Position numbers and translations under genes: made by a program. A model generated the notes under the pieces. It saw only the letters and a list, made by a program, of their open reading frames with translations, had not been told where the DNA came from and searched no databases. A stretch of DNA of 11,494 nt from a virus (lineage: Duplodnaviria; Heunggongvirae; Uroviricota; Caudoviricetes), in IMG/VR virus record IMGVR_UViG_3300018488_000078; one strand, given 5' to 3'. Of the stretch, positions 1,581-6,613 are shown piece after piece (within the stretch, counting starts at the first letter, position 1; the number at the start of each line of letters is the position of its first letter).

Positions 1581-2334
1581 TCTTCTCCTCCTCTGTTGAT
1601 TGTCGCAGCCCGGATTCAAATGCCGCAGCCGCCCAGGCGGGCGGTTTAAGACCGGCTGCACGGCGCTCCATCGTTTCACGGACCTGCTGGGCAAAAATTT
1701 CCTGATAGTCGTCACCGCGTTTTGCGCACTCTTTCTCGTAGGTACTCAGTCCGGCTTCTATCAGCATCACCGCTTCCTGTACTTCTTTCAGACCATCGAT
1801 GGCCATACGACCGGAGCCTATCCAGTCGCAGTTCCCCCAGGCACTTCGGGCTTCCTGAAAACTGAAGCGCGCTTTTGAAGGTAACGTCACCACGCGGCGA
1901 GCGATGGCCTCTTCCAGCCAGCACAGAAACATCTGGCTCGCCTGACGGGATGCGACGAATTTTCGCCGCCCCATAAAGTACGCCCACGACTCGTTCGCAC
2001 TGGCCCGTGCCGTGGAGTAGCTCATCTGGGCGTAATTCCGGGAAAGCTGCTCATACGAGACACCCAGTCCGGCAGCGATATACCGCAACAGTGACTGCTC
2101 AAACACGGAGTAGCCGTTATCCGTGTCCTGAGCCGTCTGCAGGTTCAGTGAGTCCCCCGGCATCAGGTGCGGCACTTTTGCGCCTCCCAGCCGGACCGGT
2201 GCTGCGGCGTAATACGCGGCAATTTCACCAATCCAGCCGGTCAGCCTTTCCCGCTGCTCCTGACTGTTCGCGCCCAGAATAAAATCCATCGCTGACTGCG
2301 TATCCAGCTCACTCTCAATGGTGGCGGCATACAT
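1561..2334 (-). pseudogene. B: Portal protein gpB, C-terminal 257 codons only; N-terminal half absent (truncated gene)
   Basis: Translation MYAATIESELDTQSAMDFILGANSQEQRERL...AFESGLRQSTEEEKSDSRAA matches the C-terminal part of lambda gpB as recalled; lambda B is roughly twice this length. Upstream of 2334 the frame runs only 11 more codons (ILFFSCLFIKA, AT-rich) before a stop at 2368-2370, then non-coding repeat DNA. Confidence 0.85.
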
Positions 2335-2469
2335 CGCCTTTATGAAAAGACAGGAAAAAATAAAATTTAAAAACAGTACATTACGAATGCTCAGACCTAT
2401 CGTTTAAAGGAGTCGCAATACACACTGCAATACACGATTATTTATAAGATGAGCGGCATCCGTCATAAA

Positions 2470-2708
2470 GCTGGTGGATGCTTTTTCTATGCATATATGC
2501 ACAGTTTTAGTGGGCGTTAATGTCGATATAGGGATCCCCATATCGAGATTGGATACCTGGCTTTTTTCCGGTTAACCTTTAATCAGGCTGGTGGGCTTTA
2601 CCTGTTTTGTATGAGTGGTCATCATGACCATGTCATAACAAAAACCCCATATTCGTGGTTTTTCTGTGTCGGGCTATTCTGTCGTTGCTGTGCTGATTTG
2701 GCTGGTGG
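2470..2708 (+). repeat. Cluster of three Chi octamers (5'-GCTGGTGG-3') at 2470-2477, 2587-2594 and 2701-2708, same strand, spaced 117 and 114 bp
   Basis: Octamers read directly from the sequence; the second and third share the 12-mer GGCTGGTGGGCT. They lie in non-coding DNA between ORF93 and the truncated B gene. Confidence 0.85.
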
Positions 2709-2763
2709 GCTGAATCATCATTACGGCGATGCAGCTATGTAGACGTTCCGGCCTCCTCAAATT

Positions 2764-2925
2764 GAGGATTGTGGAAGAATCAATGGGTTAGTCTTACTTT
2801 CCCGACATCCCCCAATGGGGGTTTTCGAAACAATCAATAGCTTAGGCTTACTTCCCCGATTTCCTGCATTGCAGGTTTTCGAAATAATCAATGGGTTAGG
2901 CCATCGTGCAATTTTGCACTTTGCC
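2764..2925. repeat. Three tandem units of about 54 bp, each carrying a perfect IHF consensus (WATCAANNNNTTR) at 2768-2780, 2822-2834 and 2876-2888
   Basis: AATCAATGGGTTA, AATCAATAGCTTA and AATCAATGGGTTA sit exactly 54 bp apart; units 2 and 3 also share GGTTTTCGAAA immediately upstream. A palindrome CCTCAAATTGAGG (2745-2757) precedes the array. Confidence 0.7.
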
Positions 2926-3149
2926 AGCCAGCGCAATGTCGCGTTATCAGTCCTCGGATGTGAGGGATGTAGCCAGCTTTTCCCCCAGTGGGGGATATCC
3001 AGCACCGACGGCTTAACTGTGCGTGCCAGCACAAGGTAGCCTTGAACTACTTACTGCATCCCATCTTACAGGCCGTGCCTTCCTGCTTAACTTTTTGCAA
3101 TGCAACAAGTCAGCCAGCGCAATTTTGCGTTATCGGGAATATCAGCAAG

Positions 3150-3431
3150 TTACCGCCGCAATCGTTCCGGCTTCTTCCACTGGTAAGTATTTTTCGCGCT
3201 CTCCCTCCGTTGTTGAGAACGGCGACGATATGCCAGCAACTCAAGGACTCTTGTTCGTATGTTGCGCATATCCACGCCGTTAAGCTCAATACCGTCACGG
3301 CGCATCACCTCAGCCACTACACGCACATAATTATCTGCGGTCACGCTGTCCGGCTGCGTGGCCTGTTCGTCATGCTGCTTGCTGATTCCACAAGCACGGC
3401 GGATTAATCGCAGTATTTCGGATTCAGTCAT
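3150..3431 (-). CDS. Hypothetical protein, 93 aa, in the position where a large terminase gene would follow the small terminase
   Basis: ATG at 3429-3431 starts 11 nt after the TerS stop; weak Shine-Dalgarno, so translation may be coupled. Product MTESEILRLIRRACGISKQHDEQATQPDSVTADNYV... has no recognisable domain by eye. It is far too short to be a large terminase. Confidence 0.45.
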   Translation of the reverse strand: MTESEILRLIRRACGISKQHDEQATQPDSVTADNYVRVVAEVMRRDGIELNGVDMRNIRTRVLELLAYRRRSQQRRESAKNTYQWKKPERLRR

Positions 3432-3442
3432 AGCGTACTACG

Positions 3443-3985
3443 TTACTTATCTTTATTCGGCTGCAACTTATCCGGTACGTTTCCGGCAGTTTCCATCAGA
3501 TAATCGGACAGCATCAGCGGTATGTTTTCGTCAAGTTTTGCGCATGCGTTACAGGCTCTGATAACTTCTTTTTTCAGTCCATCCAGCATAGACGGCTTCA
3601 TGTCGGGAAACTTCCTTGTCATGGCAAGCGGCAGGCTGTCCATGATTGAAGAAATCTGACTCGCCAATTTTGAAAGCACGTATATACAAAACGCTGTATC
3701 AATAACGTCGCCGCGTTCGCGCTCGTTTTTAAGCTCCTGCGCCTCTGCCTGTGCTGTCAGCAATCTGATCCTGACTCGTAGGAGTTCATCATCATCAATC
3801 TCGCCTTTGTCGTCTGTAATCTGGTTAATTGCATTGCTAACCCGATTGTCTATTACGCTGGCAACATCATAAAACGCCTCGCGGCCTTTACGTTCAACGG
3901 GAGTCACTCCCCACTTGTCGAACGCTGTCGCACTTACACGGCAGCTTTGCGCCATGTTTTTTTTGTTCATCAGGTGCGATTTCAT
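3443..3985 (-). CDS. Terminase small subunit, Nu1-like, with divergent N-terminal (DNA-binding) region
   Basis: C-terminal two thirds align by eye to lambda Nu1: RLLTAQAEAQELKNERERGDVIDTAFCIYVLSKLASQISSIMDSLPLAMTRKFPDMK versus lambda RLTRAQADAQELKNARDSAEVVETAFCTFVLSRIAGEIASILDGLPLSVQRRFPELE. The N-terminal ~70 residues differ. Start chosen at ATG 3983-3985 (GGGGA 6 nt upstream); GTG at 3995-3997 and ATGs at 3968-3970 and 3953-3955 are alternatives. Confidence 0.85.
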   Translation of the reverse strand: MKSHLMNKKNMAQSCRVSATAFDKWGVTPVERKGREAFYDVASVIDNRVSNAINQITDDKGEIDDDELLRVRIRLLTAQAEAQELKNERERGDVIDTAFCIYVLSKLASQISSIMDSLPLAMTRKFPDMKPSMLDGLKKEVIRACNACAKLDENIPLMLSDYLMETAGNVPDKLQPNKDK

Positions 3986-4096
3986 CAATATCCCCACTTA
4001 AGTAATGTTTCAGGTTGGTGTATTGGCTTTATCTTTTCCTTTTTATTCATAGAGATAGAGCGAACAACAAAACCACCACCAGCACCCGAAAAAGGC

Positions 4097-4160
4097 TCAT
4101 AAATAGCGAAAACCCGCGAGGTCGCCGCCCCGTAGCCTACCGGATCACCGGAAAGGACCC
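4097..4160 (-). other. Lambda-type cos site: cosQ-like segment (4141-4160) and cosN with 12-nt cohesive-end sequence GGGCGGCGACCT (4119-4130); cosB side divergent
   Basis: Minus strand reads GGGTCCTTTCCGGTGATCCGGTAGGCTACG-GGGCGGCGACCT-CGCGGGTTTTCGCTATTTATGA. The cohesive-end 12-mer and flanking cosN sequence match the lambda left end as I recall it, and the upstream segment matches the lambda right-end/cosQ region except for a few bases. Below 4097 the sequence departs from lambda cosB. Confidence 0.85.
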
Positions 4161-4186
4161 GCCAGCCAGAGCGGGCCCTAATTTCA

Positions 4187-4570
4187 TCAACCAATCAGCT
4201 TATAGCGACCATCCCGTGCATTGCGGCGTACACGCTCAATCTTGAGGCATAGCGCCGCATCTGGCTTTTTTGGGACAGGTACGCGGCAATATTCAGAAGC
4301 GCGAGGAATATTATTTATCCAGTCGATCACTTCACTTAAATACCAGGCCTTACGCCCTTCCGTAACCTGCACACGCTCCGGGAACTCTCCACTAGCCTCA
4401 AGGTTTAGCAGTGTACGACGACTCAGGGTTGTAATTTCCATCACCTGATTCATATCAACAAGGCGCTCGCTTAAACACATTTTGTCAGCGATAGCTTTTA
4501 ATTCCTCTACAGCTGGATTCGGGTACATCATTTCGGCAATTGGCTTAAGGTCATTGTAATCATTCTGCAT
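4187..4570 (-). CDS. AlpA-family (MerR-like HTH) DNA-binding regulator with ~40-residue N-terminal extension
   Basis: ATG 4568-4570 with GGGGGA upstream. Segment VMEITTLSRRTLLNLEASGEFPERVQVTEGRKAWYLSEVIDWINN fits the AlpA/prophage CP4-57 regulator HTH pattern. Stop at 4187-4189 lies 26 bp from cosQ. Confidence 0.65.
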   Translation of the reverse strand: MQNDYNDLKPIAEMMYPNPAVEELKAIADKMCLSERLVDMNQVMEITTLSRRTLLNLEASGEFPERVQVTEGRKAWYLSEVIDWINNIPRASEYCRVPVPKKPDAALCLKIERVRRNARDGRYKLIG

Positions 4571-4581
4571 TGTATCCCCCT

Positions 4582-4923
4582 TTACACACGAGCCAGCGGC
4601 TGAACAGAAATACCTGAGCCAACAAACGCTGCAACCTTTACTGACAGTTCTTTAACAGACTCAGGCCAGTTCAGAGCATCAACATTTAAGACACCTGTCT
4701 TATAGACCTGAGCCTGTGTTTTTTTCGCGGTGTCGATTTGTACAGCGGAAACATAAACCGCTTTACCTACGCTCGAACCATCCCATACCACCAGTGCACC
4801 TGTTGCATCTTCCTGCATCAGTGGCGTAAATGCAGGAATTACCCCTTTATTAGCTGAAAATATCCCCAGCGTAGTCACCAGTGCTTCAGTGCCAGCCATG
4901 AGTTCAGTGTAATGAGTAGCCAT
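4582..4923 (-). CDS. Head decoration protein, gpD-like, divergent from the lambda-type D at 1-251
   Basis: ATG 4921-4923 with GGGGGAG upstream. By-eye alignment to lambda gpD: PAFTPLMQEDATGALVVWDGSS...YKTGVLNVDALNWPES...AAFVGSGISV versus [22 protein letters not shown]...[16 protein letters not shown]...TAFAGTAISIV. Confidence 0.8.
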   Translation of the reverse strand: MATHYTELMAGTEALVTTLGIFSANKGVIPAFTPLMQEDATGALVVWDGSSVGKAVYVSAVQIDTAKKTQAQVYKTGVLNVDALNWPESVKELSVKVAAFVGSGISVQPLARV

Positions 4924-4932
4924 TGCTCCCCC

Positions 4933-5979
4933 TTAGCCAATGCGAACGGTAACAAAACGATTGATGCGGGCCGGTATTGGCTGTGGTGCTGAATGTGTCT
5001 GCACATATTCAATAGCCGGATCACCAGGCACAATATAGTTTTTCGGTGCAAGTTCGGCTTTAGTCAGCCCCATTCGGATTAGCTCCGGATCCTGAATACC
5101 GCCATAGGCGACAATCCCCTGAAGAGCCGTATTGCCAAGCACCATCAAATCAGGATCAAGGAAATGTTTTTCTGTTCCGTCCTCGTCGGTATAACGTCCG
5201 CTGTAAACAACAATCGCAACATCGCCCATATACCCTTTAAAACTCACCGAATCACCAAGGTCTTTAAGGGCCGTTTCCAGTTCGGAATTAGAACCACGAC
5301 GGGTATCCAAAGCCTCTTTTATCGCTCTGAATGAACGGTATTTCTTCCATACATTACCACCCATAATGATGATATTAGTGACGCCCTCACTAAATTCTGC
5401 GTAGCTCTCAATATCATCATTTGGATCAAAAGTTTCTTTATCCTTACCTGACCACTCAGTACCGCCAGACTGAGTGATGATATTTTGTGGTTTTATATTC
5501 CAGTCCAGCTCATAACGTTCAATACCATCGCCCTCAATGATATTTTTCCCCGTTGTGATTGCCTGAACAGCAAGCCATTCAATACGTGCACGAATAGCTT
5601 TAGCCTGATTTACAATCGCCTGTTTAACTTTAATATTACGCGCCCCAAAAGCATTGTATTGCTCAGGTGACACACCAGCAGGGCGCACAGCTAACTTATT
5701 TGGATCAATGCTGCTTTTCGGCTTCATATAACCTGGACGAATTGTTTTTGATTCGTATCCCTCATCTCGTGAAACTTTACTGCCCACCATAGGAGAGCAA
5801 AACGCCGCGATCGGGATATTTGGATCGTCGATCGTATCAAGAATAATGTCTCTCGATTCAAACATTACCGAGCGAGTGAAAAACAAACTGGTAAACAACG
5901 CATTTAATTTTTTTTGCACATCTTCAGCATTAGCCACCTGCACAAGCTGTGTAGGCGAATATAAATCAACCATACTCAT
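4933..5979 (-). CDS. Major capsid protein, lambda gpE family, divergent
   Basis: Shared blocks with lambda gpE as recalled: NIITQSGGTEWSGKDKETFDPNDDIESYAEF versus NITQSGGTEWSKRDKSTYDPTDDIEAYA, and LDTRRGSNSELETA in both. N-terminus MSMVDLYSPTQ parallels lambda MSMYTTAQ. ATG 5977-5979 abuts the GAGG motif, so the ATG at 5971-5973 (6-nt spacer) may be the real start. ORF-track extension to 6060 is not used. Confidence 0.85.
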   Translation of the reverse strand: MSMVDLYSPTQLVQVANAEDVQKKLNALFTSLFFTRSVMFESRDIILDTIDDPNIPIAAFCSPMVGSKVSRDEGYESKTIRPGYMKPKSSIDPNKLAVRPAGVSPEQYNAFGARNIKVKQAIVNQAKAIRARIEWLAVQAITTGKNIIEGDGIERYELDWNIKPQNIITQSGGTEWSGKDKETFDPNDDIESYAEFSEGVTNIIIMGGNVWKKYRSFRAIKEALDTRRGSNSELETALKDLGDSVSFKGYMGDVAIVVYSGRYTDEDGTEKHFLDPDLMVLGNTALQGIVAYGGIQDPELIRMGLTKAELAPKNYIVPGDPAIEYVQTHSAPQPIPARINRFVTVRIG

Positions 5980-6144
5980 CCTCTTTACATTCATTACAAA
6001 TAATTGTGAATATATTCTATTACCGATGTCTGCTATGCGAATACATGCAACCAAGTGCAATGTTGTATAAAATATGCCGTAACAACTTCAGTGCTGATAA
6101 TTCGTGTTAATGTATTTACTTCCTTTGGTCGGGATTTATGTAGC

Positions 6145-6184
6145 ATGCCGGAAAATCTATTTTTTTCCGGCATCTTTTTGTTTG
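6145..6184 (+). terminator. Stem-loop (11-bp arms ATGCCGGAAAA / TTTTCCGGCAT, 7-nt loop) followed by CTTTTTGTTTG; terminator-like on the plus strand only
   Basis: Read directly: arms 6145-6155 and 6163-6173, T-tract 6174-6184. On the minus strand the hairpin is not followed by a U-tract. No plus-strand gene is annotated upstream, so its role is unclear. Confidence 0.35.
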
Positions 6185-6190
6185 CAGAAT

Positions 6191-6613
6191 TTAAAACGGT
6201 ATATTATCGCCGTACGGATCATCATTCCCCGACTGTTGTTTTGCCCTGTTCAGTGCGTCAGTGGCCTGCCCCTGCTGGCCTTTTTTGCCGCCCGGTCGCG
6301 CCGTTCGCGCACTGATTACGCTGTCTGCGATAACCTGCCAGCCCCGCCGCGTTTCGCCGTTCTGGCCTGTCCACTGGCTTACCTGCATGTTACCCGCCAC
6401 GCTCACCAGTTCGCCTTTGTGGTGTTTTGCCAGTGCGTCGGCCTGTCTGCCAAACGCCAGGACGGATAACCACATCGTCGCCGTTCCGTCATCTGCCTGG
6501 CTGCACGGCAGGGGAACCGCCATACTCGCCATCGCCATTTGTGTCCCTTTGCTGGTGGTCTTTAACTGCGGGTCAGCCACCAGCCGCCCGTAAGCCGCTA
6601 TCTGTGCTGTCAT
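6191..6613 (-). CDS. ssb: Single-stranded DNA-binding protein (SSB) with acidic C-terminal tail ending DNIPF
   Basis: ATG 6611-6613 overlaps the upstream stop (ATGA). Glycine/glutamine-rich linker and C-terminal ...DDPYGDNIPF resemble the E. coli SSB tip ...DDDIPF. Confidence 0.8.
   Translation of the reverse strand: MTAQIAAYGRLVADPQLKTTSKGTQMAMASMAVPLPCSQADDGTATMWLSVLAFGRQADALAKHHKGELVSVAGNMQVSQWTGQNGETRRGWQVIADSVISARTARPGGKKGQQGQATDALNRAKQQSGNDDPYGDNIPF

Follow-up and report, generated by a model that had tools for sequence, protein, structure and literature searches.

A Chi octamer beside the cos site of a PICI-type satellite of Escherichia coli is probably incidental to a conserved candidate TerS recognition element

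Introduction

The R3 site of cosB lies at bp 50-65 in phage lambda and at bp 48-60 in N15, and an R3 has been proposed at bp 48-65 in PICIs, whose cosB, like that of N15, is also missing the IHF site I1 (Murialdo & Feiss 2022, PMC9026076). Among Gram-negative PICIs, EcCICFT073 also has capsid and decoration homologues, and some of these islands carry terS homologues (PMC6092414). On the side of recombination, reliance on RecBCD and Chi has recently been proposed for some lambdoid phages (PMC12315714). We came across no paper that deals with Chi in PICIs, satellites or cosB, and the subject is unmentioned in PMC6739421 and PMC12315714. The window examined here is the whole stretch of 11,494 nucleotides of IMG/VR record IMGVR_UViG_3300018488_000078, and our subject is the Chi octamer that it carries next to a lambda-type cohesive end.

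Results and Discussion

The satellite and its site of integration

The sequence-only reading had placed the octamer near the packaged end of a phage genome, whereas the element that carries it is a phage satellite within a prophage. Judged by sequence comparison, the window is not a phage but a PICI-type satellite of about 10.8 kb in portal gene B of a lambda-type prophage; at least 51 complete E. coli genomes have loci that match the window at 98% identity, and the portal-gene junction is common to these. The cargo of the satellite comprises int, an AlpA-like gene, a primase, an SSB, gpE- and gpD-like capsid genes, a cos and a TerS of its own. At the matching loci, the RefSeq annotation of the island lists an integrase, an HTH regulator, BRO-N, Icd-like, DUF4222, a D5-type primase, SSB, a gpE-like major capsid protein, a gpD-like decoration protein, an AlpA-like HTH protein, cos, a 'terminase small subunit' and a hypothetical protein, and Pfam and PHROGs bear out the gene assignments. 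On the minus strand, the AlpA-like HTH or excisionase-type regulator is found upstream of cos (4187-4570; Pfam, PHROG and annotation), along with the gpD-like head decoration gene (4582-4923) and the gpE-like major capsid gene (4933-6060), both identified by Pfam and annotation. An island of 10-15 kb with int, an alpA-type regulator, pri/rep and a cos packaging module, and with no lysis or tail genes, has the make-up by which Gram-negative PICIs are recognized. The same gene order was observed in relatives at other chromosomal att sites, namely roxA/phoQ (O157), rcnR/thiM and abgR/smrA.

The attR core, AAGGCGATGTATG (2328-2340, minus strand), divides the window: the satellite occupies the higher coordinates, and the lower ones hold the C-terminal half of portal gene B, which is of the lambda type. 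The general form of the core, AAGGCGAT(G/T)TATG, was placed by comparison with an intact lambda-type portal gene, and its copies in locus L001 lie at 2125-2137 and 13016-13028; integration is site-specific, and the satellite sits within the portal gene itself. Since the two portal halves total about 539 codons, excision should restore the gene. Repeats of TGTGTATTGCA occur three times at attL and twice at attR, at about 2412-2436 in the window and at 2253-2305 and 12921-12941 in L001, and they are likely integrase arm-type binding sites. Window 2748-2909 holds three tandem 54-bp direct repeats of 65-72% identity, in each of which an IHF consensus is matched perfectly (AATCAATGGGTTA or AATCAATAGCTTA) and a short palindrome occurs (CCCCCAATGGGGG, CCTGCATTGCAGG), and a 24-nt repeat pair is present at 2925-2948 and 3111-3134. 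The 2748-2909 array may serve as an origin, as an attP accessory array or in regulation.

The cos site and its putative TerS elements

The octamer, 5′-GCTGGTGG-3′, is an exact match to Chi on the minus strand at 4076-4083. Bp 1-34 of lambda J02459 correspond with 100% identity to window 4130-4097. Counted from the 5′ tip of this lambda-identical left cohesive end of the packaged DNA, the octamer occupies bp 48-55, and its distance to the first base pair of the duplex is 35 bp. The sequence-only reading, which had described a minus-strand Chi about 35 bp from a cohesive end, is borne out on this point by the exact match and by the lambda alignment. It was also right in taking the region for a true lambda-type cos, which has the same cosN as lambda and a divergent cosB directly upstream of terS.

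The 12-nt cohesive-end sequence, GGGCGGCGACCT (4119-4130, minus strand), is identical to that of lambda and is accompanied by the flanking cosN symmetry of a lambda-type cos. About 65 nt spanning cos, right-end side included, match the lambda/HK629/HK630 cos region at about 95%, and from bp 35 onward the divergence from lambda cosB is complete. The segment just upstream of cosN that is homologous to the lambda right end (4131-4161, minus strand) is presumptively cosQ. On the other side of cosN, a block at bp 50-78 appears to hold the fixed distance expected of a lambda-type cosB, and the terS start follows at bp 146. The 12-nt cohesive ends vary among otherwise near-identical cos regions (IMG/VR loci L017-L106, and L009 and L010), where we observed GGGCGGCGACCT, GGGCGGCAGACG, GGGCGTCAGGCG, GGGCGGAAGGCG, GGGCGGAGACCT and GGGCGTCGACCT with flanks that remain conserved. 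This variation may represent adaptation to different helper TerL, or a means of avoiding annealing with helper ends.

The satellite terS (3443-3985, minus strand) encodes a Nu1-type protein of 180 aa (Pfam Phage_Nu1, 3e-24; PHROG terminase small subunit, 5e-51). When compared by BLASTP with the prophage protein NohD, it showed 37% identity over 180 aa (E = 4e-36), in an alignment that spans the N-terminal winged-HTH (MNKKNMAQSCRVSATAFDKW versus VNKKQLADIFGASIRTIQNW) through to the C-terminus, and the recognition-helix residues of this winged-HTH differ from those of Nu1. A PDB sequence search with TerS gave no Rpp, no Nu1 DNA-binding domain and no meaningful match at E <= 1, and a back-translated TerS search of GTDB species genomes gave no confirmed relatives. 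The protein beside cos is a full-length Nu1 homologue and not an Rpp of the EcCICFT073 type.

The octamer overlaps a near-invariant, G/T-rich block of the family, TGGTGGTGGTTTTGTTGTT, which in the window lies on the minus strand at 4053-4081 (bp 50-78) and reads TGGTGGTGGTTTTGTTGTTCGCTCTATCT. On the strength of its position relative to R3, its conservation footprint and alleles, and the homology of the neighbouring gene product, this block is probably the R3-equivalent to which the satellite TerS would bind. The octamer is real and, by the same sequence features, would lie within the TerS-recognition part of a functional-looking cos. The sequence-only reading had expected either TerS or IHF to bind here; the TerS half of this expectation agrees with the known R3 positions, and the IHF half is not supported, as no match to the IHF consensus WATCAANNNNTTR with up to one mismatch was found in 3990-4118, where an I1 between R3 and R2 would have fallen.

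An inverted G/T-rich partner, GGTTGGTGT (4013-4021, plus strand; ACACCAACC on the element strand, bp 110-118), is invariant and is a candidate for an R2-like second TerS half-site, lying about 50 bp from the bp 50-58 element and inverted relative to it. In cosB subfamily B the left element reads GGTGGTTGTTGTTT and the right element ACAACAACC, and in subfamily C they read GGTGGTGGTGTTGTTGTT and ACACCCACC, respectively, while AFDKWG of the TerS recognition helix is kept in subfamilies A, B and C. Such a parallel shift of both elements could be reminiscent of the inverted R3/R2 pair of lambda, although the resemblance is suggestive only. The parallel shift also bears on a different reading of the block, namely as a site of transcriptional or translational control of terS, or for a helper factor, with Chi as its chance neighbour. 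The terS start codon lies some 70-95 nt downstream of the block, as might be expected for such a site, and the role that we assign to it in TerS binding is itself a prediction. However, no sigma-70-like promoter or terminator was found in the conserved-block region, an Rfam search of the window gave no family match, the spacing from cosN is that of R3 in lambda, N15 and PICIs, and an inverted partner some 50 bp away changes in step with the block between subfamilies, in the manner of the lambda R3/R2 pair; we consider this explanation very unlikely. The candidate TerS element (TGG)3TTTTGTTGTT (bp 50-68), together with the inverted partner at bp 110-118, offers a concrete target for work on packaging specificity.

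Conservation of the octamer among relatives

The sequence-only reading had called a Chi so close to a packaged end unusual, and had proposed that its absence from otherwise conserved homologous cos regions would refute the observation. We scanned IMG/VR with the pattern TGGTGGTTTTGTTKTTYGMTMTATCT, in which bp 48-52 were left free and bp 53-78 were fixed, and among the 90 related cos regions sharing the cosB core the octamer position read GGTGGTGG in 49, GCTGGTGG in 25, ACTGGTGG in 13 and something else in three, Chi being present in 7 of the 32 distinct haplotypes. Most relatives thus carry GGTGGTGG or ACTGGTGG and do not have the octamer. The window-type Chi allele was found in about 137 complete E. 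coli genomes, against about 767 that hold at least 80% of the cosB-terS segment. E. coli loci sampled at 96% identity kept the octamer, and six of the seven sampled at 85-92% identity were without Chi, reading TTGGTGG, GGTGGTGG, GGGGGTGG or ACTGGTGG; the lineage that retains it in this sample has a different cosN. None of the 46 otherwise conserved cos regions of subfamily B has Chi at bp 48-55. By these counts, the octamer is not maintained at homologous positions and is missing from most cos regions that are otherwise conserved, which is the outcome that the sequence-only reading had named as its own refutation.

A column footprint drawn from 50 distinct sequences locates the variation precisely. 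The least conserved position of the region is bp 49, and bp 48 is conserved at less than 90%, while the TGG of bp 50-52, the block down to about bp 78, ATGAAT and ACACCAACCTGAA (about bp 108-120) are invariant or nearly so; the conservation of bp 53-78 is partly built in by the search pattern, and that of bp 50-52 and of bp 79 onwards is free of this bias. Within the octamer, therefore, GC at bp 48-49 is polymorphic in the satellite family and TGGTGG at bp 50-55 is conserved. Since the conserved motif already supplies TGGTGG, the occurrence of GC at bp 48-49 always yields Chi.

It could be argued that bp 48-49 constitute a packaging-specificity code in which GC, GG and AC are read by different TerS variants, Chi being a side effect. 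The variation is indeed concentrated at bp 44-49, and the 5′ part of R3-PICI (bp 45-52) has been proposed to carry Rpp specificity (Murialdo & Feiss, PMC9026076). However, residues 1-45 of TerS hardly differ between loci with GG, GC or AC, and one and the same 75-aa TerS N-terminus was found with both GCTGGTGG and ACTGGTGG. Because the N-termini are so similar across alleles, bp 48-49 show no co-variation with the TerS DNA-binding domain, which contradicts such a code, and we give this idea hardly any credence.

Two recurrences of the allele count against an incidental origin of the octamer. In subfamily A, the Chi allele occurs with three different cosN overhang sequences, and in subfamily C, a group of low diversity (5 haplotypes) whose cosB is more divergent (TGCTGGTGGTGGTGTTGTTGTT), six of seven loci have Chi at bp 48-55 as well. 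Subfamily C came to light through two IMG/VR scans in which lambda cosN had to be followed within 5-66 nt by Chi; these otherwise returned mostly unrelated GC-rich coding sequence and are uninformative on the rarity of Chi near cos.

Polarity and Chi content of the satellite family

RecBCD recognizes Chi solely when it approaches from the 3′ side of the octamer. The same rule has been restated with the corollary that RecBCD entering from the right responds to top-strand Chi (PMC12315714). When terS is drawn to the right of cos, as is the convention for lambda, the cosB Chi is a top-strand copy that points only to the right (far) end and has the wrong polarity for the end that lies 35 bp away. 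The sequence-only reading had reasoned that the octamer would be met by RecBCD arriving from the far end of the genome, and the polarity supports it, in that only RecBCD from the right end can recognize the octamer. As it faces the other way, it is unable to protect the adjoining end. On its way from the right end to the cosB Chi, RecBCD would meet Chi of like orientation at 2.45, 3.78, 5.38 and 6.68 kb; these are four minus-strand octamers starting at 6577, 7907, 9505 and 10807 (span 6577-10814), with the polarity of the cosB copy and situated 2.45-6.7 kb from that end. Since RecBCD would already have passed these four, any effect of the cosB Chi on it would be at most a small addition.

For the window as a whole, rather than for the single octamer, the count is 10 Chi against 0.41 expected from dinucleotide shuffles, a number reached in 0 of 200 shuffles. 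Measured against the E. coli K-12 density, the 10 Chi in 9.1 kb compare with about 2.0 expected (Poisson P = 4e-5). Among the strand-symmetric octamers of the satellite part (window 2350-11494), Chi ranks first with 10 copies versus 6 for the next, and all 10 belong to this part, the flanking prophage DNA having 0 in 8.5-12 kb. Diverged relatives hold 10-12 Chi within the island versus 6 in total across 25 kb of chromosomal flanks, where the density is normal, and thirty-four IMG/VR contigs with distinct Chi patterns have a mean of 0.91 Chi per kb, compared with an E. coli density of 0.22 per kb. Taken together, the family gives the impression of selection for Chi. No recombinase, Gam or RecBCD inhibitor was detected among the ORFs by Pfam or PHROGs, several small ORFs being of unknown function. 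A Chi density about four times that of the host suggests that satellites without Rec and Gam rely on host RecBCD-Chi recombination or protection.

The 10 Chi of the window are split 5:5 between strands, and by a count made by hand six of them face the nearer end, which is not significant. Three plus-strand octamers (2470-2477, 2587-2594 and 2701-2708) lie close to attR in non-coding DNA. They are spaced 114-117 bp apart at 1.42-1.65 kb from the left (cosB/terS) end and are oriented for RecBCD that enters there. We considered whether this triplet might represent integrase arm-type sites and rejected the idea, as the arm-type repeats are TGTGTATTGCA and the triplet shares only the octamer and 2-5 flanking bases (12-13 nt; GGCTGGTGGGCT or similar). 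Relatives usually hold 1-3 Chi in this left-arm region, at about 1.4-1.7 kb from cosN. Two further plus-strand Chi start at 6551 and 8168, within or adjoining the 6577-10814 stretch. The first of these forms, in the SSB gene (6551-6584), an inverted repeat of two opposite-strand Chi whose starts are 26 bp apart (GCTGGTGG, 18 nt, CCACCAGC on the plus strand), and many relatives have this pair too, at about -2454 and -2428 relative to cosN. In subfamily C (IMG/VR), several Chi lie within 0.8-1.4 kb of the right end.

Given this richness, the cosB Chi could itself be selected and functional, as the final 'stop/switch' site that RecBCD meets on a leftward path along a concatemer or cos-cut circle, where cos and the neighbouring unit would be preserved, RecA loaded and packageable multimers regenerated, in the manner of lambda red gam chi+ and the high-Chi lambdoids. 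Since Chi seems to be favoured throughout the family, positive selection could also act on this copy. The proposal draws on the family-wide enrichment, on the lack of a detected recombinase or Gam in the satellite, on the precedent of high-Chi phages (PMC12315714) and on the recurrence of the octamer at bp 48-55 in subfamily C and with several cosN types. The cosB copy also has the 'active' top-strand polarity, which is predominant in subfamily A (195 top and 136 bottom, or 59%) and in subfamily C (30 top and 4 bottom). Nevertheless, the octamer is missing from about 72% of subfamily A cos regions as well as from all 46 of subfamily B, it is the farthest Chi from the entry end and by position the least useful, the conserved motif accounts for six of its eight bases, and subfamily C is of low diversity, with 5 haplotypes. 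On balance, we think that this explanation is unlikely.

A more speculative proposal would give the cosB Chi, and perhaps also the near-Chi GGTGGTGG, a dual use, as part of the TerS R3 element and as a terminal Chi that halts leftward RecBCD at the boundary of a concatemer unit; the Chi of H. influenzae is GNTGGTGG (PMC8022716). Were this true, TerS occupancy and RecBCD recognition would compete at the cosB Chi, and the initiation of packaging would be coupled to the recombination-dependent formation of packageable multimers in a satellite without Rec or Gam of its own. We regard such a dual use as rather improbable.

An incidental origin of the octamer is, in our view, the likely explanation. 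The octamer would be a Chi without a dedicated role, produced by a polymorphic dinucleotide that abuts the conserved G/T-rich element, and we infer that the Chi allele is neutral. With a family Chi density of about 1 per kb, one Chi in a 120-bp cosB is unsurprising. We propose that the satellite TerS binds the R3-equivalent block through its winged-HTH domain, and probably also engages the inverted partner at bp 110-118. TerS bound in this way would position the helper TerL on the lambda-identical cosN, so that the satellite, rather than the helper, would be cut and packaged. Meanwhile, bp 48-49 would drift among GC, GG and AC with TerS unchanged. As a Chi site the octamer is of little importance, and the Chi-rich, TerS-encoding PICI that surrounds it in a portal gene is of more interest.

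Comparison with known systems

The satellite shares with lambda its cosN and the first 34 bp, and its putative TerS site is found at the same distance from cosN (bp 48-65) as the R3 of lambda and N15 and the proposed R3-PICI (PMC9026076; Fillol-Salom et al. 2019, PMC6739421). As in those systems, a divergent cosB adjoins the gene for the DNA-recognition subunit, and other PICI cos sites have a G/T-rich sequence (GGTGGTTGTTGTTT) related to that of the satellite. The site nevertheless differs in sequence from those of the R3 and R3-PICI systems, and Chi falls within it in a minority of satellite alleles.

In EcCICFT073-type PICIs a shorter protein, Rpp, pairs with the helper TerS, whereas the present satellite has a full-length Nu1-type TerS. 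Because of this full-length protein, and because no similarity to Rpp was detected, the satellite is closer to the SaPI strategy of using a TerS of its own than to the Rpp strategy of EcCICFT073. A full-length TerS also implies that the helper TerL is recruited directly and not through a TerS-Rpp heterodimer. The candidate recognition element belongs to a widespread class of E. coli PICIs with their own full-length Nu1-type TerS in place of Rpp.

The cosB octamer resembles a canonical E. coli Chi hotspot in being the exact octamer in an E. coli element. It differs in that selection at the cosB locus is without support and in that the octamer faces away from the packaged end.

A close parallel for the satellite as a whole is provided by the high-Chi lambdoid phages (PMC12315714; Bobay et al. 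2013, PMC3784561), which, like the satellite, are without a recognizable recombinase or RecBCD inhibitor and have a Chi density far above that of the host (about 0.9 per kb in the satellite; 1 per 1.86 kb in phage LLS). Chi as the top octamer and an excess of the 'active' top-strand polarity are also common to both. This excess reaches about 87% in LLS, is weaker in satellite subfamily A and is not seen in the evenly split window, while the strongly co-oriented Chi of subfamily C are similar to those of LLS. In contrast to these phages, the satellite is an element of 10-11 kb that would depend on a helper, and a Chi triplet of opposite polarity would guard its left arm. The Chi richness of the satellite family extends to satellites the pattern of high Chi without a Rec module that is known from lambdoid phages.
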